From: a virus
DNA length: 64,000 nt
Strand: one strand, 5' to 3'
Virus record (IMG/VR): IMGVR_UViG_3300045242_000006
Span: 33,287 to 97,286 of that record
The position numbers and the translations under genes were made by a program. This document shows positions 9,573 to 59,133 of the stretch, piece after piece (position 1 is the stretch's first letter; each line of letters starts with the position of its first letter). The notes below the pieces were generated by a model. The model had not been told where the DNA came from, did no database searches, and saw only the letters and a list, made by a program, of their open reading frames with translations.

Positions 9573-9647
9573 TGGAGCGGATAGGGAATTTCGAAATCCC
9601 GACGAACAGCTTGGAAGGCTGACACTCTGCCTCTGAGTTATACCCGC
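9573..9647 (-). tRNA. tRNA-Gly(TCC)
   Basis: GCGGGTATAACTCAG...CTTCCAA...TCCA. Confidence 0.9.
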
Positions 9648-9654
9648 TTTAATT

Positions 9655-9743
9655 TGGTGCCCCTAGTGAGATTCGAACTCACAACACCTTCCGGCGTGCT
9701 GGCTTCTAAGACCAGTGCGTACTGCCAATACCGCCACAGGGGC
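9655..9743 (-). tRNA. tRNA-Leu(TAG)
   Basis: Loop CTTAGAA, long variable arm, ACCA. Confidence 0.9.
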
Positions 9744-9753
9744 AAAACTTTTT

Positions 9754-9826
9754 TGGTGTGAGGCTGGGTACTGACCCCAATCCTTCGTTTCACAGACGAA
9801 GTTCCTAACCATCGAACTACCTCACC
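9754..9826 (-). tRNA. tRNA-His(GTG), degenerate T arm
   Basis: TTCGT-CTGTGAA-ACGAA; ends CCA. Confidence 0.7.
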
Positions 9827-9835
9827 ATTGTTTCT

Positions 9836-9985
9836 TTAAATCCATTCTTCTTCAGAGTGAATTTCTTCAAGTGCTTCTTTGAGGGTCTGTTTATCTAGAC
9901 TCCTCTCTTTAAAGTAAACCCTTTCACAACAACCACAAGGCATCACAGCAAACTTCTTCTTGGTTTGTTTTACTCGGACTTTCAT
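9836..9985 (-). CDS. Small 49-aa protein (MKVRVKQTKKKFAVMPCGCCERVYF...)
   Basis: AGGAG RBS; fills the gap between tRNA-Ala and tRNA-His. Confidence 0.6.
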   Translation of the reverse strand: MKVRVKQTKKKFAVMPCGCCERVYFKERSLDKQTLKEALEEIHSEEEWI

Positions 9986-10003
9986 TTCTACACTCCTATA
10001 ATT

Positions 10004-10077
10004 TGGTGGACCGTCAGGGAGTCAAACCCTGCCTTTCGCCGTGCAAGGGCGACGAACTATCGAAATTCTTACAGCCC
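10004..10077 (-). tRNA. tRNA-Ala(TGC)
   Basis: TCGCC-CTTGCAC-GGCGA, G3:U70, ACCA. Confidence 0.85.
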
Positions 10078-10186
10078 ATTATCGCGTCTACTGCCAGATG
10101 TTCCACTCCTACGCCGTAAGTGGTCGTGCTTGTGGCTGGAACGATAAGCTTGGGTATAAGCCCATATGCCACCTTTACAGTAAAAT

Positions 10187-10260
10187 TGGTCACTCGGGGT
10201 GGAGTCGAACCACCGCCACTTCGTTCCAAACAAAGTACGCTACCGTAACGCTTCCGAGAG
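10187..10260 (-). tRNA. tRNA-Pro(TGG)
   Basis: Loop TTTGGAA, GTTCGAC, ACCA. Confidence 0.88.
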
Positions 10261-10282
10261 ATAAATCATTTACATCTTAAAT

Positions 10283-10371
10283 TGGTCCCGCTTGGTCGGA
10301 ATCGAACCACGCAGCCAGAGGCAAGGCGTTTACAGCGCCCCGTAGCATCCCAGTGCTACTAGTCAATCGGG
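10283..10371 (-). tRNA. Atypical tRNA with GTA (Tyr) anticodon
   Basis: GGCG-CTGTAAA-CGCC; 6-bp D stem, ~8-bp acceptor with C1:G72. Confidence 0.65.
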
Positions 10372-10377
10372 TTTGTT

Positions 10378-10454
10378 TGGCAGGCAATAGAGGATTCGAA
10401 CCTCCCATCTTGTGATTAACAGTCACAGACCAACACCTAGTCAGATCATTGCCT
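10378..10454 (-). tRNA. tRNA-Asn(GTT)
   Basis: TGTGA-CTGTTAA-TCACA, GCCA. Confidence 0.88.
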
Positions 10455-10522
10455 ATAATTCTGATAGAGATTATATTTATACAGCACACTCTATCTGGCT
10501 GTACACGTGGGGAGCACATGTT

Positions 10523-10602
10523 TGGTAGGCCGAGTTGTTGGATTCGAACCAACGTCACCACATCTTACGTGCGGTATCCTGAGCCTCTAGACGAAACTCG
10601 AC
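10523..10602 (-). ncRNA. Atypical tRNA-like RNA (Glu-type D arm, loop CGUAAGA, extended 3' CUACCA)
   Basis: TTCGTCTAGAGGCTCAGGA D arm and canonical T arm, but G instead of U at position 33. Confidence 0.6.
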
Positions 10603-10607
10603 ATGTT

Positions 10608-10689
10608 TGGTAGCGAGTCCGTGAATCGAACACGTAAGCACTGGGATATGAACCCAGAGACAACACCAGTCAGTCTTAGCCGACTCGCC
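10608..10689 (-). tRNA. tRNA with CAT anticodon (Met/Ile2), 8/4-type fold
   Basis: GGCGAGTC/GACTCGCT acceptor, CGTG/CACG T stem, loop TTCATAT. Confidence 0.7.
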
Positions 10690-10696
10690 ATTTATT

Positions 10697-10770
10697 TGGT
10701 TGCTCGTAAGTGAATTGAACACCTCTCACTCGGTTATCAGCCGAACGCATTACCACTATGCTAACGAGCA
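10697..10770 (-). tRNA. tRNA-Ile(GAT)
   Basis: Loop CTGATAA, ACCA. Confidence 0.88.
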
Positions 10771-10906
10771 ATTTGTTTGTATCCCTGCTGGCTCTCAACT
10801 GCTTTATCTTGAGCCATTACCATCCGATCAAAGATGTATCACCTTCGTTTCCCGCAACCTTTTAAAAGCAGTAAAAGGAAGCTTCGTATCCGGCTCACAG
10901 GCGATT

Positions 10907-10981
10907 TGGTAGTCACTAGTGGGATCGAACCACTCTAAAAGGCTTCGTAGACCTTTGCCTAATCCAATCGGCCAAGCGACT
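10907..10981 (-). tRNA. tRNA-Arg(ACG)
   Basis: Loop CTACGAA. Confidence 0.88.
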
Positions 10982-10987
10982 ATTATT

Positions 10988-11061
10988 TGGTGCCCCATCA
11001 CAGAATCGAACTGCGTTCTCAGCGTTACAAAGGCCGAGTAATACCAATATACTAAAAGGGC
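10988..11061 (-). tRNA. tRNA-Thr(TGT)
   Basis: Loop TTTGTAA; C:C mismatch at the base of the anticodon stem. Confidence 0.8.
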
Positions 11062-11128
11062 GGAATTCTTAGGAGCTATAACGTGCCCGAGACGTACAGT
11101 ATTTAGGGGCTACTGTAAAGGCCAGCTT

Positions 11129-11203
11129 TGGCGGTCCTACGGAGAATCGAACTCCGTTCCCTCGCTAGACAGGCGAGTATAATAACCGTTATACGATAAG
11201 ACC
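11129..11203 (-). tRNA. tRNA-Asp(GTC)
   Basis: CTCGC-CTGTCTA-GCGAG, GCCA. Confidence 0.88.
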
Positions 11204-11207
11204 AAAT

Positions 11208-11283
11208 TGGAGCAGTTGACCGGATTCGAACCGGCGTCTTCTTGGTTGAAAGCCAAGCATCCTATCCGCTAGACGACAACTGC
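11208..11283 (-). tRNA. tRNA-Glu(TTC)
   Basis: CTTGG-CTTTCAA-CCAAG. Confidence 0.9.
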
Positions 11284-11690
11284 AAAATTCCTGCATGTAC
11301 CTTCCGATGGCAATTAGAGCAAAGGATGACACATTTTCTAATCTCTGCCTTTAACGTGTTTGTTGAGTACGTTAATAGGTTACTTGGGTTTGCATCTTTG
11401 CCAGATGGATCAGTGTGATGAAGGTCCAAAGCTACTGGCTCTTTCTCACAGCAAACCAAACATCCGAAAAATGACTTGAACCGTCTCATTAAGTTTCTGT
11501 TGTACTCTCTTGTCTCGGCATTTCTTGCTTTGATAGAGCTTCTACGATTCTCGTTTGTGACGTAACCACTATTATTCTGTGCTTTCTGACAATCACGACA
11601 CCTTGTCTGTAGTCCATCAGGCTTAACCTTATTCTTATTGAACTCAGACCGAGGCTTTAACTCATCACAGACTTTGCAGTGTTTTGTCAT
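11262..11690 (-). CDS. HNH endonuclease
   Basis: CxxC pairs, LDLHH, C.ILCSNCHRKVH. Confidence 0.85.
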   Translation of the reverse strand: MTKHCKVCDELKPRSEFNKNKVKPDGLQTRCRDCQKAQNNSGYVTNENRRSSIKARNAETREYNRNLMRRFKSFFGCLVCCEKEPVALDLHHTDPSGKDANPSNLLTYSTNTLKAEIRKCVILCSNCHRKVHAGILQLSSSG

Positions 11691-11812
11691 TTGCCGCTGA
11701 CAGGGTGTTTGTCTTTGCGGGCTTTGTTCGGATGACGACCTTTGCTATCTTTCAAGCGAGTCTTATCAACCGGAGTGTGTTCTTTTGTTGCATCGTATGG
11801 ACGTTGTGCCAT
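11687..11812 (-). CDS. Small basic 41-aa protein (MAQRPYDATKEH...)
   Basis: AAGGAG RBS; ATGA overlap with the HNH gene; TTGACA promoter at ~11846-11874. Confidence 0.6.
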   Translation of the reverse strand: MAQRPYDATKEHTPVDKTRLKDSKGRHPNKARKDKHPVSGK

Positions 11813-11904
11813 TTCGTTTCTCCTTAATGTCTAGTTCATATGAGTATTTAAACACGACAATTGTACATTGTCAAGCGTTTATTTAAAATTATTTGCACTA
11901 TCTT

Positions 11905-11979
11905 TGGTAGACCTGCTTGGGATCAAACCAAGACTAACTCTTTAGAAGAGAGTTGTGCGATTCACTACACTACAAGTCC
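11905..11979 (-). tRNA. tRNA-Arg(TCT)
   Basis: ACTCT-CTTCTAA-AGAGT. Confidence 0.85.
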
Positions 11980-11985
11980 AATGTT

Positions 11986-12058
11986 TGGCGGGCACCCTTC
12001 GATTCGAACGAAGCTGGAAGTGATTTGGAGTCACGACTGGTCGCCAAGACCGACACCC
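11986..12058 (-). tRNA. tRNA-Trp(CCA), atypical D arm
   Basis: GTGA-CTCCAAA-TCAC, GCCA. Confidence 0.7.
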
Positions 12059-12065
12059 CTTAATA

Positions 12066-12195
12066 CGGTTGCAAGTGAGGAAGGATTTGAACCTTCTCAT
12101 TGTGAGGCGCATGCTTCCTCAGTGACGAAATCAAACAGAAATCCTTACCTCTATTCCGGGTTACGCTCCCGCTCTACTCCCATAGTCACTTGCAA
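12066..12195 (-). ncRNA. Expanded-cloverleaf tRNA-like RNA
   Basis: 10-bp terminal stem TTGCAAGTGA/TCACTTGCAA, T arm GAAGG-TTCAAAT-CCTTC, four further hairpins; promoter TTGACG-N17-TATAAA just upstream. Confidence 0.6.
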
Positions 12196-12295
12196 ATTCG
12201 AAGGAGACATTTATAACACGCAGTCTCCAGTGCGTCAATCAGAGAGTTGGTTTCTCTGTCACATCCCAAGGCGCTTGAAGCTTCAGGTTGTTCTG

Positions 12296-12850
12296 TTAGT
12301 AACCGTATCCATCGAATGGATTAGCGGTTACAGCTAAAGGTGCAAAGCCCATGCTCTGGAATTTATCAGTTGTAATCTTCCAGCCGAGACGCACCCTCAA
12401 ATCTTTCGTATCAGACCAAGGCTTAACAAGGTAGTACTCAAATCCTACAAGCTTGTCTCCATCTTTGAGCTTGGAGAGCATATACCCCGGCACTTTAACC
12501 TTATCAGAGATATCAGGGTTTCCTGTCGTCTCAATTGTAAACGACTCTGACCAAGATAGTCCAGTCATTTTTGAATATCCGTACAAGGGATTCCTGAACA
12601 TCCAGAATACTCTATTTACGTAACCTTTGATGCCAGTCGTTTCATTTACGAACGGTGCACGCGTAGTGACATATCCTTCATCACCTTGTGGTGGGTTGTC
12701 ATAGGTTCCCCAGATCCAGCCCCACGTGTACTCAGACTTATCATGGTCTTGCTCTCTTGTAAAGGCAGCAATGACTGGTGCTGTAAATGGTACAGTAAGT
12801 GTTAGGATAATGTCCAGTACAGAAAGTACAAACCACTTCAGATAAATCAT
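12296..12850 (-). CDS. Hypothetical membrane-associated protein in tRNA cluster
   Basis: Start MIYLKWF (GAGG RBS); the longer track ORF runs through tRNA-Gln; W.FRNP.YG motif. Confidence 0.75.
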   Translation of the reverse strand: MIYLKWFVLSVLDIILTLTVPFTAPVIAAFTREQDHDKSEYTWGWIWGTYDNPPQGDEGYVTTRAPFVNETTGIKGYVNRVFWMFRNPLYGYSKMTGLSWSESFTIETTGNPDISDKVKVPGYMLSKLKDGDKLVGFEYYLVKPWSDTKDLRVRLGWKITTDKFQSMGFAPLAVTANPFDGYGY

Positions 12851-12865
12851 AAATACCTCTTTGTT

Positions 12866-12940
12866 TGGCAGCGGGTGAAAGGATCGAACTTTCGTAACTG
12901 GATTCAAAGTCCAGCGCCTGTGCCACTCGGCCAACCCGCA
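12866..12940 (-). tRNA. tRNA-Gln(TTG)
   Basis: CTGGA-CTTTGAA-TCCAG. Confidence 0.9.
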
Positions 12941-12946
12941 ATTAAT

Positions 12947-13020
12947 TGGTGCTCAATGAAGGAATTGAACCTCCGTCTGCTGCGTGTAAAGCAGCGGCCC
13001 TACCATTAGACGAATCGAGC
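12947..13020 (-). tRNA. tRNA-Val(TAC)
   Basis: GCTGC-TTTACAC-GCAGC. Confidence 0.9.
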
Positions 13021-13026
13021 TTTGTA

Positions 13027-13103
13027 TGGTTGGCCCTCTGAGATTCGAACTCAGAACATTCTCCTTTTGAGAGAGACGCGACTACCAATTGCGCCAAGGG
13101 CCA
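13027..13103 (-). tRNA. tRNA-Leu(CAA) lacking the long variable arm
   Basis: TCTCT-CTCAAAA-GGAGA. Confidence 0.8.
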
Positions 13104-13123
13104 TCTGTTTGGTGTTTCTAATT

Positions 13124-13236
13124 TGGTACGACAAGTAGGAATCGAACCTACTATACATCAGCCGCTAAGCTGATCTTAATGAGCAAAAGACCTATACCAC
13201 GCCTATAGGAAGTTTCGAACCCTCCACAACTTGTGT
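13124..13236 (-). ncRNA. Expanded-cloverleaf tRNA-like RNA ending ACCA
   Basis: T arm GTAGG-TTCGATT-CCTAC plus four hairpins. Confidence 0.6.
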
Positions 13237-13255
13237 CTCATCTTGCCGTATTGTT

Positions 13256-13349
13256 TGGCGGGTAGCAGAGGAGTCGAACCCCATCCGGCTCTCGCCAGAA
13301 CCTAGTTTTCAAGACTAGTCGCAGGACCAACCCCGCTGCATTACTACCC
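13256..13349 (-). tRNA. tRNA-Ser(TGA), 8/4 fold
   Basis: GGGTAGTA/TGCTACCC acceptor, 4-bp T stem, loop CTTGAAA, long variable arm, G73. Confidence 0.85.
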
Positions 13350-13473
13350 ATAAATTTTAGAGGTTCAACTTGGGACTTGTACCCCTGCCGGACTAATGCG
13401 TCATTCCGAGTGCGACCAGACCGCGAACCCTCACGTCTGTGCAGTTTTCTTATGGGTTGCGACCCCATCATCT

Positions 13474-13561
13474 TGGCAGTAGATACAGGATTCGAACCTG
13501 TGGGACTTTTACATCCTATGGTTTAGCAAACCACTGCAATCGGCCTCTCTGCCAATCTACT
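13474..13561 (-). tRNA. tRNA-Ser(GCT)
   Basis: Loop TTGCTAA, variable arm, GCCA. Confidence 0.9.
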
Positions 13562-13566
13562 ATATT

Positions 13567-13641
13567 TGGTTGGACGACTGGGAATCGAACCCAGCATGTT
13601 CGGATTAAAAGTCCGATGCCTGACCGCTTAGCTTCCGTCCA
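13567..13641 (-). tRNA. tRNA-Lys(TTT)
   Basis: TCGGA-CTTTTAA-TCCGA. Confidence 0.9.
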
Positions 13642-33283: not shown

Positions 33284-33835
33284 ATGGAACTCAATCTGTC
33301 GAAAACAACCGCTCTGCTAGACCTGACCAAAGTAGCACCAAGCCTTGTAGAAGTACGTGGTGAACTGAGCTGGGGCATGCACCCAATCAAAGGTCAAGAG
33401 TTTGACCTCGATATCTTCGCCTTCATCACCTCGAATGGTAAGATTGGTAGCACTGCTGATGTGGTCTTCTTCAACAACAAGACTGCCTATAACGGTGCGG
33501 TAGTTTACCCACGTGATAGCCGTGATGGTGGTGACGTTGAAGAGGTTACTGTTAAACTCGGTAGCGTGCCTGCTGACAAAGACAGCATTGAAATCTTCGT
33601 ATTCATCCACGAAGGTGTGCAACGTCAACAAGACTTCAGCATGGTTCAAAGTGGCTCCTTCAAACTCTTTGATGAGAAGGGCACACTGATCCAAGACTAC
33701 AAGCTGCAACAGTTTGTCAATGGTACTGCACTGCATATTGGTAGCCTGATCCGTAACCCTTCTGGCTGGGGTTTCCAACCAGTAGGTGAGTCGGCAGTAG
33801 CCAACCCTAACGAAGTGCTTAGCGCTTTCGTGTAA
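33284..33835 (+). CDS. terD: TerD family protein
   Basis: FDLD, VFFNN, D.RDG, W.F.P.G. Confidence 0.88.
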   Translation: MELNLSKTTALLDLTKVAPSLVEVRGELSWGMHPIKGQEFDLDIFAFITSNGKIGSTADVVFFNNKTAYNGAVVYPRDSRDGGDVEEVTVKLGSVPADKDSIEIFVFIHEGVQRQQDFSMVQSGSFKLFDEKGTLIQDYKLQQFVNGTALHIGSLIRNPSGWGFQPVGESAVANPNEVLSAFV

Positions 33836-46884: not shown

Positions 46885-48000
46885 TTAGATCCGCTTCACA
46901 CCGTGTTGCTTAGCAAGGTAGAAATCATTCAGGTTTATCTGGCTTGCAACTTCTTTCAAAAGCCTGCTCTGCTCTGCAATGGTACGCTGAATTTCAGCCT
47001 TCTGCAACTCAAGTGCTTTGATCTTTTCAAGATACTCAGACACCTGCAATTGAGGTAGAGCCTCGACAGGCATTTTAGTCATCTTGTCTATATCTTTCCA
47101 GCTATAGACGCTAATGTCAGAGCCAATAGGACCGAAACCCGGAGAGGATGAGTCATCGTCATAGTTCAGAACATACAGCTCACCATCGTCCTTGTATTGG
47201 AAAATGTCACCTACTTTATAGCCCATCCGTCGGCATGGTGTCAAGCTTCCAACCAAACTATCATCCCACTCGGTTTTGATAGCGTGTACCAGCTCACCCA
47301 GTTGCAGCATACGATTTGCACCATACTCACCGCCCCACTTATCAGTGATGCTACCAAAACTTTCAGTCGGGCTCTGCCCATTAACGCCTTTGACAGGGTA
47401 GTGGTATTCACCGCTGTAGCTTGGAACCCTGCGGATCAAGTTTTCTTTGACCCAAGCCATTTGGCTATAATCAGCACCAGCCTTTCGAGCAAAAGTTTCA
47501 ATGTTGTCACAAATCCCGTAACTATAAGTCAGACCGTTAGGACGTGGATTGGCTATTGGAGCAGCACGGTAGAGTGTGACAGCTTCCAACATAGCTTCAA
47601 AGGTGTCAACAGCATTCTTCTGTAGTGGCGTGTAAATCACTTCACCGGGCCACGGCGATCTTGCTGGCGTGGGGAGCACTTTGCGGTAGTCAGTAGCCAT
47701 CATGGCTGCAACACTCTCTGGCGGTAGCATGGGCACAGGCAACGGCACCTGAGGGGAATCTACTGCGATGGCAACTCGCGGCTGTTCTGGGATGATTTCC
47801 AAATCCTCAATAAGGAAACACTTGCATCCAACAGTGCCGCACTCAGACTTAAAGAAAGGTAAGCGGGATTTATCGTCGTCGATAAGAATGAAGACCAAAT
47901 CACGTAGAGCCTCTGAGTACCCCTCACCTACCAAACGCAAACGGGTGACGTCTTCAATGAAGCCTTTCTCTTGTGCTGGTGTGAGTGTGGACGTTGTCAT
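46885..48000 (-). CDS. Hypothetical multidomain protein
   Basis: Start moved to MTTSTL; C-terminal coiled coil. Confidence 0.7.
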   Translation of the reverse strand: MTTSTLTPAQEKGFIEDVTRLRLVGEGYSEALRDLVFILIDDDKSRLPFFKSECGTVGCKCFLIEDLEIIPEQPRVAIAVDSPQVPLPVPMLPPESVAAMMATDYRKVLPTPARSPWPGEVIYTPLQKNAVDTFEAMLEAVTLYRAAPIANPRPNGLTYSYGICDNIETFARKAGADYSQMAWVKENLIRRVPSYSGEYHYPVKGVNGQSPTESFGSITDKWGGEYGANRMLQLGELVHAIKTEWDDSLVGSLTPCRRMGYKVGDIFQYKDDGELYVLNYDDDSSSPGFGPIGSDISVYSWKDIDKMTKMPVEALPQLQVSEYLEKIKALELQKAEIQRTIAEQSRLLKEVASQINLNDFYLAKQHGVKRI

Positions 48001-48282
48001 TGCTCTGTTTTCCCTTGCCTTAATGGCGTTCTGTTTAAGTGGGACCATCTTATCAAGTGTGGCCGGCCAGTCAAGCACTATTTTAAAAGAATTTTTCATT
48101 GGATGCGAATGATTCTACCTCTTATCCAGTGGGACATTGACGTGCTTCACGAAAAAGCTGTAGCACGTCGTTTTCCATTAACCAACCACTCTCTATAGAT
48201 TTACACCAATCTCTGTAAAAAACTGGCCGGGGATTTTCCCCCAAAGAGATGCCCGTTTCTGTGAAAACCTGTCCGGGGACTT

Positions 48283-48693: not shown

Positions 48694-49293
48694 TTAAATA
48701 AGGGAACGACTAACCTCTAAGGCTTTAACAACCAGTGGATACTTCTTGTACACCTTTCTCATATTATCAATATGACGCAGCTTCTCCACTCTCCATGCTT
48801 GGTGGGCTTCATCCTCAGTTTCGTAAATCCCTAAGTACTTACCTCCAAATGGCGTAGTACACTTGGCAATAAATCTAACACCATCATACTTATAAAGCTC
48901 TACACCAGCTTTATACTCAGACACTTTACGTTCTCTGAGTACACTATTCACCACTACTGGAACGAACACACAAGTTTCCGGTGAATATATTTTATTACCC
49001 GGTACTAATAAATCTTTGTCCAACTGCCAAAACCTGCCACTCTCAACTTCCATATAACCCTTCTGAGAGTGGCACCACTCGACAAAAGTTTGGAAGTCTG
49101 TGAAGCTATTACTAGTCCCTTCGTAAGCGGGCTGCCTCTTCCATAGTGATGGTAAACATCTTGAGTTTACATTGTTCCAAAGCTTACCAGCTCTTGTGTG
49201 GTACACAATACCATCCTGACCATAACTTTTAAGCCACAGGCCGAAGCTACCTTTAACGTCCTCTTTAATTACGGACTGGTCTCGACTAGCCAA
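48694..49293 (-). CDS. HNH homing endonuclease (AP2-like C-terminus)
   Basis: LDKDLL..GNKIYSPETCVFVP..VN; YLG.Y.T..EAH.AW. Confidence 0.85.
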   Translation of the reverse strand: MASRDQSVIKEDVKGSFGLWLKSYGQDGIVYHTRAGKLWNNVNSRCLPSLWKRQPAYEGTSNSFTDFQTFVEWCHSQKGYMEVESGRFWQLDKDLLVPGNKIYSPETCVFVPVVVNSVLRERKVSEYKAGVELYKYDGVRFIAKCTTPFGGKYLGIYETEDEAHQAWRVEKLRHIDNMRKVYKKYPLVVKALEVSRSLI

Positions 49294-51490: not shown

Positions 51491-51865
51491 TCACTTCTGT
51501 TTCTCCATACGCTTGATAGCCTTGTCAAAGATGCCACGACCAATCTTCATACCCTTAACACCCAAAGCTTCAAACTGACCCTTCATCTGGTTAGCACCAT
51601 GGCAGCACGCTACAACATTTCCAGCGATATAGCCCTTGGAGCCGTCGATACGGTCAATGGTGGCGTCTGAGAGACGCATTTCACTTTTACCATCGCTCTT
51701 AGTGAGTGGCAAGCCAGTATAGTAGCAACGCTTGGCACCCATCAGATTCTTCATCGACTGGAATGTCAGAGTGAATTCGATGCCACGTTTCTTGGCGTTC
51801 TCTGCTTTCCAAGCCAAATGCTTGGCACAGTACAGGTCGAATTCAGCTTTGGTGAAGTTGCTCAT
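51491..51865 (-). CDS. HNH-fold protein
   Basis: CYYTG...TIDRIDGSKGY..GNVVACC..AN.MK. Confidence 0.8.
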   Translation of the reverse strand: MSNFTKAEFDLYCAKHLAWKAENAKKRGIEFTLTFQSMKNLMGAKRCYYTGLPLTKSDGKSEMRLSDATIDRIDGSKGYIAGNVVACCHGANQMKGQFEALGVKGMKIGRGIFDKAIKRMEKQK

Positions 51866-52203: not shown

Positions 52204-52719
52204 TTATAGGACTTGCTTCAGATCGTCAAGCGTTAACCCTTTTGCTTTCAGAATAACATCCAAAGAAGCTTTCGTTTCTTTTGCAAGATCGAATTTCTTC
52301 CTGTCAAGTGCCTGTGCGAACAGGCTTTCAACTTCAGCGAACGTTCTGCCCTCGACACCAACAAGAAAGTCAAAAACCTTATGAAAGGGGTTCTCTACTT
52401 TATGTGCAACGGCAACAGGGGTCTTTCTTTGAACTGCAACAGCCTCTTCAAAGTTCAACTTACCTTTGTTATCTGCCATGATCCAATTACTGATTCGGGT
52501 TGCCCAAGTCCAGTAGCGTTCACCAGTTGCATCAGACAATGCTGATGCAATTTTTGTATTCATCACTTTTGATCCCTTGATCATATTAACAATCATCTTT
52601 TTATCTCGGATCAAAAATACTTTTCGTACTGTGCTGTATTCTTCGTTTGCTTCGCCAGTCGTGGTCGCACGTTTACAAGCTTCAAGAACGAAGTCTACAA
52701 TTTGAGGCAAGGTGAACAT
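52204..52719 (-). CDS. Hypothetical protein
   Basis: TAATG-coupled to the NTase gene. Confidence 0.75.
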   Translation of the reverse strand: MFTLPQIVDFVLEACKRATTTGEANEEYSTVRKVFLIRDKKMIVNMIKGSKVMNTKIASALSDATGERYWTWATRISNWIMADNKGKLNFEEAVAVQRKTPVAVAHKVENPFHKVFDFLVGVEGRTFAEVESLFAQALDRKKFDLAKETKASLDVILKAKGLTLDDLKQVL

Positions 52720-53723
52720 TAGTATGTCTCTCCAGTGTAAGGTTTCAGAAGATGTTGGTTCTTGTTGAACCGTTCGATATAGTCATTCTCGCCTAGTTCA
52801 TTGTACAGGTCAAGCACTTTTTGATAATTTTCCCAAGCATATTCCCTAAACCAGCCTGACGTAATACTTGTGCACACCTTCATCAGAGCCATCTCAAAGC
52901 TCCACCGAGCACTTGGCCCACCTTCCTTACCCAAACCATGGGGAATCTGCGAACGCTCAAGGGCGAGCACGCACGCCTCTTCATAGACGCCATAAAGACG
53001 TACTTGTTCCGGTACTGACATGAATTTCTCCTTAGAGGTCATCACCTCAGAACCGTCTTTCATGTAATAGGTATAGGCTGGTGTTGGTTTGCCCCAATTG
53101 CCACCCATCTGCTCATACAGCCAATCACGCTCCACACTCAAAGCCACAGCCAAGTGGATGCTATCGTGATCGTACACGTAATTCACACCATCACCATTGA
53201 AGAAGTCTTTAGAACTGACGTTCAGCTTTGGGTGTTTGTAGGTGTAGCTTTCACTCTCACGAAGCTTGAGTAGCGCCAAATTAGCGGGATTCTGTGTTAA
53301 CCAATACTTCACATCCCCGGACCCAATCTTCTCACGCAGGAAGTGGATATCTCCCATAGTTTTCAAGAAGTGTGGACTGTTCTTTTTATAACGATGACTC
53401 TGCTTGATTAGCAACAGATCTTCGTTGACAGCGATAGCAGGCTCAAGCATCACAATGTCTTTGATGCCGTAGTGCTCAAGCAGAGACTCAGCAGACGTAC
53501 CTTCCCAAGCAATCTCAAACTCGTAGTTCATGCCATCTTTATCACGGCAGTGATAGTATTTACCACCTTCAGTTGGGACAGCAAACTTCAGCATTCCTTT
53601 GTTGGCCTTGTGCCAAGCAGTGAACTGTTCGATGGTGCAGATATAATCCCAGTCAATGCACTTACGTGTCTCTGCAATTTCTGGGTTGTTTGCCACGAGG
53701 GCGCGAGAGCCTACAAGAAGCAT
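52719..53723 (-). CDS. Pol-beta-family nucleotidyltransferase-like protein
   Basis: LVGSRA...IDWDY (hGS...DxD); C-terminal YDHDSIH, EEA.V.ALER, CTSITSGWFR. Confidence 0.75.
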   Translation of the reverse strand: MLLVGSRALVANNPEIAETRKCIDWDYICTIEQFTAWHKANKGMLKFAVPTEGGKYYHCRDKDGMNYEFEIAWEGTSAESLLEHYGIKDIVMLEPAIAVNEDLLLIKQSHRYKKNSPHFLKTMGDIHFLREKIGSGDVKYWLTQNPANLALLKLRESESYTYKHPKLNVSSKDFFNGDGVNYVYDHDSIHLAVALSVERDWLYEQMGGNWGKPTPAYTYYMKDGSEVMTSKEKFMSVPEQVRLYGVYEEACVLALERSQIPHGLGKEGGPSARWSFEMALMKVCTSITSGWFREYAWENYQKVLDLYNELGENDYIERFNKNQHLLKPYTGETY

Positions 53724-53734
53724 GATGAATCCCC

Positions 53735-54082
53735 TTAGATGAATTTGATACCGGCTTTTTGCATAATCAGATTATAAACCATTGCTTGTTGTTCAAGCTC
53801 TTTGATTTGAGCGTAGATATCTTTGCAGTTTCTAACTGCTTCGTCAAGACTTATTTCAGTGGTTTCCACACCAACAGGTGGGTAGGTTTTAGCAGCTTCA
53901 ATATAAAGTTTGAATTTAGACTCATCGTAAGTGTAAGCACTCAGATCATTACCCTCCGTATCACACAGATATAGGTAGTCAAAATCTTCATGGTTTTTGA
54001 CCAAGTAGACACCACCCTTTTTAGTGCCTCTAAAGTCACCTTGAATCCTTATGACCTTGTCACCTTTTTGAAATTGTGGCAC
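53735..54082 (-). CDS. Hypothetical protein (SH3-like N-terminus, coiled-coil C-terminus)
   Basis: GTG start with GAGGA RBS; promoter TTGACA at 54137-54142. Confidence 0.65.
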   Translation of the reverse strand: MPQFQKGDKVIRIQGDFRGTKKGGVYLVKNHEDFDYLYLCDTEGNDLSAYTYDESKFKLYIEAAKTYPPVGVETTEISLDEAVRNCKDIYAQIKELEQQAMVYNLIMQKAGIKFI

Positions 54083-54160
54083 TTCTAAATCCTCGTTTGT
54101 TTGTGTGGAATAGATGATATAGAAACGCCCCGGAGCTGTCAACCCCGAGGCGTAATCATT

Positions 54161-54400
54161 TTAGCAATTTTGGCTAGAGGCTCGCCAGAAGCTCTGGCCT
54201 TCATCAAGGCCGTGGTGATCACGGTCGTCTTCATCCACTTCAGAAGCAGGTACGTAGTAGCCACCCATACCGTAACCACCAAGATTCATAGTGAATCCAA
54301 GGTCATGTTCATCAGCGATGCTTTCAGCTTCCCACACAAGCTTCTGGGCTTGGTCAAGCAGAACTCCAATCTGTTTCAACACTTCACGTTTATCAGTCAT
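54161..54400 (-). CDS. WxSSxC-tail protein 1
   Basis: AAGGAG RBS; ends FWRASSQNC*. Confidence 0.75.
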   Translation of the reverse strand: MTDKREVLKQIGVLLDQAQKLVWEAESIADEHDLGFTMNLGGYGMGGYYVPASEVDEDDRDHHGLDEGQSFWRASSQNC

Positions 54401-54410
54401 TTCATTCTCC

Positions 54411-54875
54411 TTAGCAGCGGGAACTATTCCAGTCAGAGTTTTCATCAAGGTCGGCAACACCCATAGGCATACGGCAGGAGTACGGTAATGCCGCATCATG
54501 GCTTAGTGTGATTGCTTCTTGTACAGCATTGAAGGCAACCTCATTCAACTCAGCGATACGCTTCACAGCATTCTCACGCTTGGCTTTGATATCAGCAACA
54601 TACGTTGGGTTTTCAGTGATGAACTTTTCATAGTCATCACGTGTGCATGTCTGCCCTTCGTCATACTCTTCAAGGTATTTGAACACACCATCACAATCAA
54701 AGCCAAGATCAAGCGCAACCTGTTCGCCATTCCAACGTTCCCAAGTTTGTCCAGTCTTCCAGCCTTCAAAATGCACTTCACAGTTGTCCTGAGAAGCTTC
54801 TACAGCTTCAGGCCATTGACGCCAGTCAATATTTTCTTCTGCGAATTTCAGTGCCAGATATTTTACCAGTTCCAT
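54411..54875 (-). CDS. WxSSxC-tail protein 2
   Basis: Start MELVKY; ends DWNSSRC*. Confidence 0.75.
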   Translation of the reverse strand: MELVKYLALKFAEENIDWRQWPEAVEASQDNCEVHFEGWKTGQTWERWNGEQVALDLGFDCDGVFKYLEEYDEGQTCTRDDYEKFITENPTYVADIKAKRENAVKRIAELNEVAFNAVQEAITLSHDAALPYSCRMPMGVADLDENSDWNSSRC

Positions 54876-55279
54876 TAGACGTTCCACCCATAGTCGTAGC
54901 CTTCCTGAGCAGAGGTTTCCCACTCACAACCACCAGACGATTCCCACAGAGAAGCTGGGGTGTATGTGTTGACAAAGCCATCACGATCTTCAAAAGTGAA
55001 TGGTACTTCAGCCGATTCAGCAGTCTCAGAAGCCCACTCTTTAATCAGGTCGTACAGCGCATCATAGTCCAGATCGAGTGCACCCTCTTCAGGCAGATCC
55101 TTCAAAACCAAGGCCAGCTTGGCAAGGTTGGCCATTTCATTGCTGGACAGGCCGTCCAGATCGTAAGTGTTGTACGAACCTGTGGCGCCATTGTGATAGG
55201 TGTAGGTTACAGTTTGAGCAACCAGATCAATACCAGCACCGATGTGTTTACGTGCATTTTCAACAGTAGTAGAAGCCAT
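54875..55279 (-). CDS. WxSSxC-motif protein 3 (tandem sub-terminal motifs)
   Basis: AAGGAG RBS; ...LWESSGGCEWETSAQEGYDYGWNV*. Confidence 0.75.
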   Translation of the reverse strand: MASTTVENARKHIGAGIDLVAQTVTYTYHNGATGSYNTYDLDGLSSNEMANLAKLALVLKDLPEEGALDLDYDALYDLIKEWASETAESAEVPFTFEDRDGFVNTYTPASLWESSGGCEWETSAQEGYDYGWNV

Positions 55280-55330
55280 TTGTTTCTCCTTTATTAAGAA
55301 AATTATTTTACTTGGTGGAAATATTGCCAC

Positions 55331-55771
55331 TTAGCAATACATCGAACTGGAATCCCAATCAACGCTGTCAATCAGACGGAAGTCATTAGTGTGTCGGCCA
55401 ACTTTGATATCCGCTGGAATGTTGTATTCATTTGCCAGTGCCAACAGTTCATTCATAGCTGGACCCACTTGAGCAACAAGCTCAGCAACACGTTCTACAG
55501 CTTCCCGCCGTGCCTTATTGTAAGCCATGTGCTCTTCAGCAAAAGGGCCATCAATGTAGGCCAACACTTCTTCTACAGAGAAGGTATTACACTCCAGTTC
55601 GAAATCATATCTATCTGGACCCAGACGCTCGCTGTCCAGATAATGCTCATCCAGATATTTATTACCATCCATTACGTTGATATCTTGATAACTTGTTACG
55701 ACAGTCTTACCATCTTCCAAGCTCAACTTACCATTTACCACTTGCATCGCAACATACAGAAGAGTTTTCAT
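55331..55771 (-). CDS. WxSSxC-tail protein 4
   Basis: Ends DWDSSSMYC*. Confidence 0.78.
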   Translation of the reverse strand: MKTLLYVAMQVVNGKLSLEDGKTVVTSYQDINVMDGNKYLDEHYLDSERLGPDRYDFELECNTFSVEEVLAYIDGPFAEEHMAYNKARREAVERVAELVAQVGPAMNELLALANEYNIPADIKVGRHTNDFRLIDSVDWDSSSMYC

Positions 55772-56184
55772 TACGCTTTCTTTCCTCCTTCAGCGAGACG
55801 ATTCTCGATTTTATGGTCTGCCCGTTGGGCATTGTAATATAGCTTATCCACGATTGCACCAGCCAAATCCCAACCTTCGTGACCAGCTAGGTCCAATAGG
55901 CGAATCATTGCGTCAGCAGCTTCAACCTCAGCCATTGGACGATCCTTCAAGTGGTCATCCATCAGACCCTTGCGAACACCCTCGACAGCCTCACTCACTT
56001 CAGAGTGTACCAATGCCAGCTTGGACAGAATCAAAGTGATATCGTTCTTCGGATGCGGCACACCTGTAACGATATTATGCCACCAGCCAGCTTCTACATT
56101 ACCATTATAGATGGTGTGTTGCAAGTGACCCAGTGCCTGATGGATACGTGCTACTTCAAATACTTCTAGATTGTTAATGCTCAA
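55771..56184 (-). CDS. MazG-like NTP pyrophosphohydrolase
   Basis: LALVHSEVSEAVEG.RK...E.ADA.IR.LD; TTG start with AAGGAG. Confidence 0.85.
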   Translation of the reverse strand: MSINNLEVFEVARIHQALGHLQHTIYNGNVEAGWWHNIVTGVPHPKNDITLILSKLALVHSEVSEAVEGVRKGLMDDHLKDRPMAEVEAADAMIRLLDLAGHEGWDLAGAIVDKLYYNAQRADHKIENRLAEGGKKA

Positions 56185-56194
56185 TGTTTTCTCC

Positions 56195-56392
56195 TTAGCA
56201 AGTGCCGTAACTAGACGACCAATGGTCAGGCTGATACTCAGCCGTGGTATTATATGCTCGACCACCTTCGAATGTGATATCGAAGACAATGTTGTGTTCG
56301 TCAGCAACAACCCGAGCCTGTGCGTGCAGCACTTGGATAGCTTCTACCATGCTTGCGACATATTGAGTTGCTTCGTGGTTGGACATACTCAT
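56195..56392 (-). CDS. WxSSxC-tail protein 5
   Basis: Ends HWSSSYGTC*. Confidence 0.75.
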   Translation of the reverse strand: MSMSNHEATQYVASMVEAIQVLHAQARVVADEHNIVFDITFEGGRAYNTTAEYQPDHWSSSYGTC

Positions 56393-56625
56393 TTGATTTC
56401 TCCAATTGTGTTGAAAGTGAAACCTTGCCCATTCTGCACAATCAGAGGGAAGGTGCGGAAGCCCATCATACCGAGTTCTTCCAGTTTGTCCATTAAATCT
56501 TCCATGTGATAATCCTTATCAAGGACAAGGACATCGAATTCAATGCCGCGAGACTTTAGCACAGCTTTAGCTTGTTCGCAAGATGTGCAAGGGATTTTAC
56601 TGTAAATCACCACTTTGTTGCCCAT
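56389..56625 (-). CDS. Glutaredoxin
   Basis: CTSC, RTFP. Confidence 0.9.
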   Translation of the reverse strand: MGNKVVIYSKIPCTSCEQAKAVLKSRGIEFDVLVLDKDYHMEDLMDKLEELGMMGFRTFPLIVQNGQGFTFNTIGEIK

Positions 56626-57399: not shown

Positions 57400-59133
57400 T
57401 TACTGACACATTTCGCAAGACTCAACACGGGTGATTTCCCCGGCGCCTCGCATACTGTAGATATAGTATAGGGACAAGATGTTAGGATCGTTGAAAGCAA
57501 GCCTGTGGATCTTACCGATGTACTCCGGTGTATCGTTCGACGTGAAGTAGAGGTTGATGCTCTGACCTTGGTCGATGTAGTTTTGACGCTGAGAGCACAG
57601 ACGCAAGTGGTCTTCCATTGGAATTTCAAACGCTGTACGGAACACCGCTTTCTCTTCGTCTGTCAGCCATGTCACGTGTTGAACAGAACCCTTACGTTCG
57701 TTCATATCCTTAACACATTGCTCGATATCCAAACCTTTCAGCTTGATTAGGTTCAACAGCACTTTGTTGATGCGGAAGAACTCACCACCAGCAGATTGTT
57801 TGGTGAAGCACATGGCAACGTCCAGACCAACACCCTCAGAAGCTCCTGCCATCAACTCAGCGGTCGATTTGGTAGGTGGCATCATCAGCATAGTGGCATT
57901 GCGTTGCCCAAGCCCTACACAGCCGTCTGGCTCGCCCATGGTGACAGCCAACCAAGAGTTTGCGGCAGTTGCGTCTTTGTGAATACCACGGAAGATTTTG
58001 GTGTTCAACATCATAGCTTCCATGCTCGACACAGACATCATCTCAGCTTGTAACAGAGTGTGGAACCCTAGAACGCCACTACCCAGTGCACGAAACTCTT
58101 TGGTGAAGCGTAGAATCTTCTCCATTGCACGTAGGTCCTTCTTAGACAATGTTGTTTCCATCGTCTCAATGTATTCACTGATGTTGCAGTCACTCATAAC
58201 TTGACCAACAAACACAAGGTGTTCAGGCCAGCTACGGTACAACTCTAAGTTGTAGTTGAGGATCACACAACTGAAAGTGTAGTCGTCATCTGCTGGCAAG
58301 TTGGTTTCTTGACACAAGTTGGAAGCTCTTGCTCGTAGTCCAGCACGTTTAAATGCCTTAGCCAACTTGCGATTCATCTTGTCAATGAATGTGAAATATC
58401 CCTTGCCACGTGGCATCTTAATGCCCAGCATCTTAGCAAACTTGCGAAGTGCTTCAGGATCTTCGTTGTTCATCCAATCAACAAACTCATCGTCGATCAA
58501 CCAACCAACGTTGTTACTCTCTGTACGTTCGTACAGGAAGTCTGCAACTTTATCAAAGTCACCGTGTTGAGGACGCAGGCTGTAAGCACACGATCCACGG
58601 CGTGGCCCTTGAGCCACCTCTTCCATTACGTTAATGATGTCTCTTACCAGCGGCATAAGCCCCTGAGAGTGTCCACCTCGAATCTTATCACCTTCAGCAG
58701 GCCAATCATCCAAGCAGTAACTAGTTCCATGGCTGTGCTTTGTCAGGATCGCCGCTTCTGTCAGGAAGTCATAACGATCAAATAGGCTGTTGCCAACATT
58801 ACCACCAGCACAGCTTACAGTCGTACCACGTTGACGCAGGCCACCGTTCGCCAGTAGTGGAGTAGATGGGCTCACGAAACCGTCCCACATCGTCTGGAAG
58901 AATGCATCTTCCCAAGTCTTGCCTGTCCAGTATGGATGTTGATTCCACCACTCAGGGTACACTTCAGGAGCGTGCTTCGCCATAGCTTGAGCTACAGTGC
59001 GGAAGCGAGACTTAACTGTCTCATTGTTGTACGAGTATTTATCGTAGAACAGTTGGATACCGCCCGAAGTGTACCACGATGGGCACACGCCGTCTTCAAT
59101 TTGTTTCTTTCTTAATGCAGAGTAGTTAATCAT
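57400..59133 (-). CDS. nrdA: Ribonucleotide reductase class I alpha subunit (no ATP cone)
   Basis: STP.LANG, SC, SNLCQE, LG.GV.G, PT, DQGQS, LYY, C-terminal CEMC. Confidence 0.93.
   Translation of the reverse strand: MINYSALRKKQIEDGVCPSWYTSGGIQLFYDKYSYNNETVKSRFRTVAQAMAKHAPEVYPEWWNQHPYWTGKTWEDAFFQTMWDGFVSPSTPLLANGGLRQRGTTVSCAGGNVGNSLFDRYDFLTEAAILTKHSHGTSYCLDDWPAEGDKIRGGHSQGLMPLVRDIINVMEEVAQGPRRGSCAYSLRPQHGDFDKVADFLYERTESNNVGWLIDDEFVDWMNNEDPEALRKFAKMLGIKMPRGKGYFTFIDKMNRKLAKAFKRAGLRARASNLCQETNLPADDDYTFSCVILNYNLELYRSWPEHLVFVGQVMSDCNISEYIETMETTLSKKDLRAMEKILRFTKEFRALGSGVLGFHTLLQAEMMSVSSMEAMMLNTKIFRGIHKDATAANSWLAVTMGEPDGCVGLGQRNATMLMMPPTKSTAELMAGASEGVGLDVAMCFTKQSAGGEFFRINKVLLNLIKLKGLDIEQCVKDMNERKGSVQHVTWLTDEEKAVFRTAFEIPMEDHLRLCSQRQNYIDQGQSINLYFTSNDTPEYIGKIHRLAFNDPNILSLYYIYSMRGAGEITRVESCEMCQ

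Follow-up and report, generated by a model that had tools for sequence, protein, structure and literature searches.

Do a row of small phage proteins with a common C-terminal tail and a nucleotidyltransferase (NTase) encoded next to them belong together, and if so, what might the enzyme do with the tail? The question is raised by a 64,000-nucleotide (64-kb) stretch of the IMG/VR virus record IMGVR_UViG_3300045242_000006 (positions 33,287 to 97,286), hereafter the window, in which a group of minus-strand genes, here termed A to E, is followed in transcription order by an NTase gene. The enzyme and the tail genes are exactly two conserved parts of one cassette, which is a widespread two-part phage module, and the tail may be the site that the enzyme recognizes and modifies. 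The record is 97,286 bp long with terminal repeats, and the window is its right-hand 64 kb. It originates from a soil metagenome, for which three soil-metagenome DNA sequencing runs and no RNA run are listed, and it is related to the Otagovirus phages of Pseudomonas syringae with 75-84% DNA identity in patches; the carrier is a soil Pseudomonas-type phage.

Tail genes in the window and their linkage to the enzyme

The motif W-x-[SA]-S-x(1-3)-C placed directly before a stop codon has four matches in the window, all within 2.2 kb and the only ones in its six frames, while shuffles give a chance expectation of 0.12 per whole window. The four matches belong to gene A (56195-56392, minus strand), an open reading frame (ORF) of 65 residues ending in HWSSSYGTC, gene B (55331-55771, minus strand; 146 residues, DWDSSSMYC), gene D (54411-54875, minus strand; 154 residues, DWNSSRC) and gene E (54161-54400, minus strand; 79 residues, FWRASSQNC). 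The NTase gene (52719-53723, minus strand) encodes 334 residues with the domains DUF7277 and DUF7275.

The linkage of tail genes and enzyme in other genomes was followed from both sides. Searching IMG/VR for the peptide patterns WQASSQSC and YGMGGxY yielded 38 confirmed tail-selected loci, on contigs of 10-389 kb. A DUF7277+DUF7275 enzyme is present in all 38, on the same strand and within ~2 kb (E 1e-53 to 1e-183 by hidden Markov model, HMM), downstream of the tail gene in 35 and upstream in three. The enzyme itself has a base rate of 731 in 50,697 phage records, and 11 of 15 enzyme-selected loci carry 1-4 tail genes directly upstream; the other four (L016-L019) are one lineage of ~141-kb phages with no adjacent tail gene. 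The first-pass annotation of the window had named linkage to NTases in other genomes as one check on its proposal, and the linkage is decisively borne out on both counts. The same adjacency was found by tblastn in phage DE16 (rV5-like), Ralstonia phage RSP15, Edwardsiella phage PEi20, Acinetobacter T4-like phages and Pseudomonas phage Kremar.

A neighbour census was made over 42 loci with enzymes less than 85% identical, in which same-strand ORFs within 6 kb were clustered by BLAST. The enzyme recurs in 42/42 loci and the tail cluster in 41/42 (103 stop-to-stop ORFs), and the next commonest cluster is ribonucleotide reductase (RNR) in 13/42, with glutaredoxin and a MazG-size cluster at 8/42 each. 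Counted with the family HMM (E<=0.01), 90 tail genes lie in 41 loci, 1-5 per locus and 2.2 on average. The pairing of tail genes with the enzyme can thus be regarded as practically certain. Within the Otagovirus-like lineage alone, glutaredoxin, MazG and RNR accompany the cassette as local neighbours; the first two, drawn into the system by the first-pass annotation, recur in that clade only and drop out as parts of it.

It is very improbable that the two parts are merely co-inherited in one accessory-gene block with no functional link. Such synteny would accommodate the arrangement in the window, where the NTase start lies 438 nucleotides downstream of the array end, separated from it by an unrelated gene and by a 13-bp hairpin after gene E (54153-54125, minus strand) that is overlapped by a putative sigma-70-like promoter, TTGACA-17-TATCAT (54142-54114, minus strand; an 11/12 consensus match only). 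It would also accommodate the lineage L016-L019, whose only tail-like ORF (147 residues, divergent, ...YAWCSSSMEC) lies 6 kb off on the opposite strand. However, the adjacency persists down to ~37-40% NTase identity and in different phage groups (Otagovirus, rV5-like, several T4-like genera, Ralstonia RSP15 and jumbo contigs) while the other neighbours turn over, and presence and absence of the two parts are matched in T4, RB69 and the genomes with short enzyme forms described below. The hairpin/promoter element is unique in the window and not a repeated element. The unrelated gene, which encodes 115 residues from a GTG start (53735-54082, minus strand) and has a C-terminal phrog_4317 match only, is not found in L006, L007, L010 and L012, where an E-type gene directly abuts the NTase gene; it is a lineage-specific insertion between array and enzyme.

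Among the model phages, T4 has neither a DUF7275 match nor a tail-family match, which removes the parallel to the T4 nrdC.11/mobD region that the first-pass annotation had drawn. RB69 has both parts: its enzyme, ORF134c, is preceded by ORF136c (...GWVSSSYSC), ORF137c (AYGMGG...GGWVASSHTC) and ORF139c/138c. In the last of these (L066:2735-3041), ORF139c holds the helix and loop of the family, the overlapping ORF138c frame ends in ...GAWVSSPALC, and the family match extends over the two and is interrupted by stops; the pair represents a member that is split or decaying, or else a case of programmed frameshifting.

Short homologues of the enzyme, 248-264 residues long, are encoded by Gordonia phage OneUp (gp10, L059), Streptomyces phage Wakanda (gp195, L060) and Vibrio phage R11Z (gp138, L061). 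DUF7275 is kept in these short forms, and residues ~31-95 of the N-terminal lobe are missing, including the strand with E68/E70. No tail gene was found in the three whole genomes with a query that does work on RB69. The short form adjoins a tRNA array in OneUp and lies between polynucleotide kinase and RNA ligase in Wakanda, at most a hint that the wider enzyme superfamily deals with RNA ends.

A family of proteins with a conserved C-terminal module

A family HMM over helix and tail aligns all four proteins, with E 7e-29 for E, 6.5e-15 for A, 2.6e-10 for D and 6.7e-10 for B, in keeping with the earlier description of a shared helix before the tail. Gene A, a minimal member, is aligned over its whole length. 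The canonical member is E, composed of the helix, a GYGMGG loop, an acidic linker and FWRASSQNC. In B the module takes up residues 86-146 behind an N-terminal body of ~85 residues, and D has a body of ~97 residues followed by a module without the YGMGG loop.

The first-pass annotation had counted five ORFs with the shared tail, which holds for A, B, D and E and fails for gene C (54875-55279, minus strand), whose stop overlaps the start of D. This protein of 134 residues ends in GWNV, and its internal LWESSGGCEWETSA had been taken for a version of the tail. The family HMM matches it weakly (domain E 3e-4), with residues 74-132 on model positions 18-70 and the alignment ending at the tail Trp, so that C has the helix part of the module and a tail cut to GWNV. 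Because the alignment reaches the last GW, the Trp homologous to that of the tail is the terminal one; the internal WESSGGCEWETS (WESSGGC) is a linker repeat like those of the members P0100, P0151 and P0156. The same cut end (GWNI) is found in gp158 of phage M5.1, indicating that the truncation is not an error. Gene C is arguably a fifth, divergent member with its tail truncated.

Several observations bear on the age of the paralogues. Orthologues of A in other genomes are 84-85% identical, and the best nine matches of each of A, B, D and E are orthologues elsewhere, never co-resident paralogues. The B-type ending ...SSSM[YI]C is still found where the NTase is just 41-55% identical, and a D-type gene, directly abutting the NTase gene, is the sole tail gene in L013 and L015. 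By these comparisons the paralogues are ancient and separately kept.

In a profile search of 1.84 billion representatives, the family comprised 768 clusters at E<=0.001, of which 138 reached E<=1e-10, while a single-sequence search reached Otagovirus-type relatives only. The best 150 of the 768 clusters all end in the tail, and 146 of these 150 have six residues between the Trp and the terminal Cys. The consensus runs from a helix (...EAExIADExG(L/V)xF) through the loop (A)YGMGGxY and an acidic linker of variable length to GWx[AS]SSx[SN]C, in which the Trp, the Ser at W+3 and the Cys are invariant. The terminal residue is exactly Cys in 81 of the 90 locus members, and the G-x-G-G loop is kept by 38 of the 90.

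In every case the module forms the C-terminus, behind N-terminal bodies that differ where they are present, and helix and tail are thus the common denominator of the paralogues. A known N-terminal domain was recognized in one of ten bodies tested, the WYL_2 domain (PF10902), an Sm-like SH3 barrel that precedes the module in a B-position protein (L048:9134-9715, the same as L020; E 4e-8). The bodies of B and of the 115-residue gene have no significant similarity to this protein outside the module. A search for longer fused forms of the module found none, which is weak evidence. The family has no Pfam or NCBIfam model, and PADLOC gave just two sub-threshold rows at chance level. The pattern WQASSQSC gave 47 matches and no relative in 185,579 genomes, which, for a single pattern, is weak evidence of absence from cells.

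PHROG entries divide the family. Gene E (E 5.6e-19) and gene A (E 1.4e-7) both match the C-terminal part of phrog_899, B matches phrog_23943 and C phrog_17937; phrog_899 covers A and E only, and B, C and D are in other PHROGs or none. This entry is chimeric: its N-terminal part (positions 13-129) is matched by an HNH/AP2-like ORF of 199 residues (48694-49293, minus strand), AP2-like in its C-terminal half, so that a part resembling homing endonucleases is joined in one entry to the unrelated Cys-tail module.

An AlphaFold2 model of E made with 99 sequences is a confident one, with a predicted local distance difference test (pLDDT) score of 90 and a predicted template modelling (pTM) score of 0.73. 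It has a long helix (residues 4-32), a small sheet with strands at 36-39, 46-50 and 71-74, two short helices (57-63 and 75-78) and a turn at the terminus. The Gly-rich loop (41-50) and the tail (71-79) are its least confident parts (pLDDT 77-79, compared with >90 elsewhere); that these are the two most conserved motifs would fit exposed, partner-dependent segments. Against the PDB, Foldseek returned nothing at E<=0.001 and the best VIA match reached Z 3.9, small helical proteins being hard to match, and the ESM Atlas gave nothing above 0.79. The fold was matched in BFVD only by uncharacterised proteins of Pseudomonas, Yersinia, Aeromonas, Acinetobacter, Stenotrophomonas, Acidovorax and Escherichia phages, RB69 ORF139c among them.

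The nucleotidyltransferase and its possible action on the tail

The enzyme matches DUF7277 (PF23942) with 77.7 bits (E 1e-21) and DUF7275 (PF23940) with 229.9 bits (E 3e-68), against a cut-off of 27, and phrog_2141 with E 2.5e-118. As the first-pass annotation had stated, it lies one gene past the array, the 115-residue gene standing between E and the enzyme, and it has the signature G5-S6...D24-W-D26. In 37 sequences, down to 37% identity, the residues G5, S6, D24, D26, K107, H110, K121, T122, R155, H186, D187, H190, E248, E249, E256, R257, K282, S286 and R293 are invariant and E68 nearly so. The G-S...D-x-D core that marks the pol-beta superfamily is, to judge from the sequence, intact.

The model of the enzyme (pLDDT 91, pTM 0.87) supports this assignment. 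Foldseek ranked MenT1 first (probability 1.00, E 2e-3), and VIA-align comparison with 48,161 chains gave MenT1 (Z 10.4, root-mean-square deviation 3.9, 150 residues), TglT/MenT3 (Z 9.9), ANT(2'') (Z 9.7), MenT4 (Z 8.3) and LnuA (Z 8.2), with only NTases at the top of the list. ANT(2'') and LnuA are effectively tied with the MenT proteins, and ~150 of the 334 residues are aligned. The enzyme is thus an NTase of the pol-beta fold, with the MenT toxins and the ANT enzymes, which act on small molecules, as its nearest neighbours in structure. No DUF1814/AbiEii (PF08843) match was obtained in Pfam (only the two DUFs at E up to 0.1), in PADLOC or with a profile against PDB sequences. No MNT (PF01909), HEPN, HD, ACT or PII domain was detected in the ten proteins scanned, the NCBIfam scan gave no matches, and the ESM Atlas returned DUF7275/7277 clusters only. 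RlaP is a phage RNA-repair NTase of the pol-beta type (PMC7824862); nothing was found that ties the enzyme to it, the RlaP family not having been tested by accession.

How the enzyme and the tails act together can be read in more than one way. It is quite possible, if short of probable, that the tail is the recognition and modification site of the enzyme. The NTase would dock on the helix/tail module of the tail proteins and put a nucleotidyl (or phosphoryl) group on the invariant Ser three residues past the Trp, or possibly on the terminal Cys. Several different small effectors, produced early in infection, would then share the tail as a tag for modification. Protein hydroxyls are known targets of pol-beta-fold NTases, as shown by MntA acting on HepT, GlnD on PII, and also GlnE and DrrA. 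Modification of the tail is favoured by the conserved nucleophiles at the chain end, these being the Ser and Cys of the invariant Trp, Ser and Cys, and by a module that acts as a portable tag on different bodies. It is further favoured because one enzyme serves several old paralogues and because the tails accompany only enzymes with a complete catalytic lobe, the short-form phages having no tail genes. The two parts are also present or absent together in T4, which has neither, and in RB69, which has both. The first-pass annotation had proposed a shared docking or acceptor tag, and this view fits the varied N-terminal bodies, the 1-5 tails per enzyme and the invariant Trp, Ser and Cys.

A number of findings weigh against modification of the tail. 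Gene C lacks the tail altogether, and about eight of the 90 members have no tail or have 1-3 residues past the Cys, indicating that the terminal Cys is not strictly necessary. The YGMGG loop is missing from D-type members, the array and enzyme of this genome are separated by the promoter/hairpin element and an extra gene, and in L016-L019 the one tail-like ORF is distant and oppositely oriented. Moreover, the structural relatives MenT1, TglT/MenT3 and MenT4 act on tRNA 3' ends and are inhibited by small partners encoded upstream (PMC10435456).

This last point leads to the main alternative, possible though less likely, in which the NTase acts on an RNA end (e.g. the tRNA 3' end) or a small molecule and the tail proteins are antitoxin-like pseudosubstrates. 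The acidic tails would plug the electropositive cleft of the NTase and gate or time the enzyme while remaining unmodified, as MenA1 does for MenT1. With MenT1, TglT/MenT3 and MenT4 among the best fold matches, this inhibitor model has the best structural precedent, and MenA1 is likewise short (68 residues), encoded upstream and based on a long helix (PMC10435456). Of the 38 loci, 35 have the tail gene upstream; all five proteins in the window are acidic, with a pI (isoelectric point) of 4.05-4.75; and the end of a protein chain lends itself to mimicry of a polymer end. The distant short enzyme forms, moreover, adjoin tRNA genes (OneUp) or Pnk and RNA ligase (Wakanda). However, the scores of ANT(2'') and LnuA are close to those of the MenT proteins, and neither Pfam nor PADLOC gives a DUF1814/AbiEii sequence match. 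The C-terminus of MenA1 is dispensable (PMC10435456), whereas here it is the most conserved part. A single inhibitor would be enough, but as many as five paralogues of ancient divergence, differing in their bodies, are kept.

The cassette resembles MenA1-MenT1 and the MenT-AbiEii group in that a two-lobed pol-beta NTase follows a short protein with a long helix, and differs from them in several respects. The cassette enzyme is ~140 residues longer than MenT1, and the cassette is phage-encoded, whereas MenAT is on bacterial chromosomes. Its small partners, in arrays of 1-5, come from an unrelated family marked by a beta-sheet and by a C-terminal tail that is invariant. MenA1 has two helices and AbiEi a winged helix-turn-helix plus a kinase-like domain; the model of gene E, a small helical protein of a kind that is hard to match, reached at most Z 3.9 in the PDB, and the protein has no Pfam match. 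ANT(2'')-Ia and LnuA superpose with the N-terminal NTase lobe about as well as MenT does (Z 9.7 and 8.2), but they are small-molecule enzymes of ~160-180 residues with no large DUF7275 helical domain and no partner proteins.

Reactions or ligand binding intrinsic to the tail, with the NTase only supplying or activating something, are improbable. The options are a 'sponge' for metal or nucleotide, built from the Gly-rich loop, the acidic end of the helix and Ser-Ser...Cys, a terminal-Cys carrier and a Ser/Cys crosslink like that of ribosomally synthesized and post-translationally modified peptides (RiPPs), and the low estimate holds for all of them jointly. They gain from the conservation of A-D-E at the helix end, the YGMGG loop and Ser-Ser, and from the Cys, which is the very last residue in all 150 best representatives as in most locus members. 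The spacing from Ser to the C-terminal Cys presumably resembles that of lanthionine and aminovinylcysteine (AviCys) motifs. However, the G-x-G-G loop is present in fewer than half of the members, some members have residues past the Cys or no tail, the phages appear lytic on Gram-negative hosts, and the proteins have no secretion signal. RiPP or lanthipeptide precursors combine a disordered core peptide with a maturase (LanB/M/KC/L, LanD, YcaO or a radical S-adenosylmethionine enzyme) and an exporter, whereas here the module is predicted to be a compact folded domain, as judged from the model of E, and no maturase, decarboxylase or exporter is conserved nearby in the 42 loci. The suggestion of the first-pass annotation that the proteins might be RiPP-like precursors is thereby disfavoured.

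Modification of the tail would follow the logic of HepT-MntA (a type VII toxin-antitoxin system) and GlnD-PII, in which one pol-beta-fold enzyme covalently labels the small protein of an adjacent gene. The cassette differs from these in having none of their detectable domains, in a proposed acceptor Ser/Cys in a C-terminal tail rather than a Tyr in a loop, and in several partners per enzyme. Taken further, one MenT/ANT-like enzyme might write a nucleotide on the Ser, or the terminal Cys, of a universal C-terminal tag borne by a varying set of small acidic effectors, a phage post-translational nucleotidylation whose conjugates would act on host targets or defence, for example as protein-nucleotide mimics of RNA ends or nucleotide signals; this extended proposal is rather doubtful. 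If it were true, it would represent a new class of enzyme-plus-tag system in hundreds of phages, RB69 and phage-therapy genera included.

Novelty and genomic surroundings of the cassette

Literature searches on DUF7275, DUF7277, PF23940, the PHROGs, RB69ORF139c and phage MenT-like NTases found nothing on the cassette. The entries that its parts match, DUF7277/DUF7275, PHROG 2141 and PHROG 899, carry no function, and both parts lack a name, a solved structure and a publication. As a principle, the combination of an NTase with a small adjacent partner is already known from MenAT1, HepT-MntA and GlnD-PII. New in the cassette are its phage-borne nature, an unrelated partner family with a unique tail, the partner arrays and an enzyme outside the DUF1814 and MNT sequence families, and there is a real chance that its chemistry is new as well.

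The enzyme is present in at least 731 sequenced phage genomes and the tail family in 768 representative clusters, and among the carriers are the laboratory phage RB69 and, in therapeutic use or under consideration for it, rV5-like, Acinetobacter, Klebsiella and Pseudomonas phages. The cassette is tightly co-inherited and, as far as tested, confined to phages, and it joins a tail with invariant nucleophiles to an NTase with an intact core; such signatures usually hide a host-takeover or counter-defence mechanism. For annotation, four to five 'hypothetical' genes become one family, the NTase becomes its partner, and the glutaredoxin and MazG genes become bystanders.

The genes of the region are tightly packed and all on the minus strand. 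Upstream of the cassette in transcription order lie the gene of the RNR alpha subunit (57400-59133, minus strand), three small minus-strand ORFs and a glutaredoxin gene (56389-56625, minus strand; PF00462), which overlaps the start of gene A. A MazG-like pyrophosphatase gene (55771-56184, minus strand) with a TTG start, for which start and ribosome-binding site were read, stands between A and B; it matches phrog_5658 (E 9e-70) and nothing in the Pfam scan. These positions, and that of the promoter-like site after E, are as the first-pass annotation had given them. A minus-strand gene for 171 residues overlaps the NTase gene and is next in transcription order.

Two weak Pfam rows, Phage_spike_P1 on C and QLQ on the 115-residue gene, were under the cut-off and were rejected. 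The family HMM found no significant similarity between the 115-residue protein and the tail module. By eye, its N-terminus is SH3-like. It shares with a protein of 404 residues encoded 6 kb off (46885-48099, minus strand) a similar long helix near the C-terminus, after which both end in ...[KQ][AH]G[IV]K[FR]I. At ~40 kb from the cassette, 19 tRNA genes predicted by ARAGORN are arrayed at 9573-13641 on the minus strand. An ORF of 124 residues (51491-51865, minus strand) has, by eye, an HNH-like motif (...DRIDGSKGYIAGNVVACCHGANQMKG), and the syntenic gene of phage M5.1 is annotated as an HNH endonuclease.

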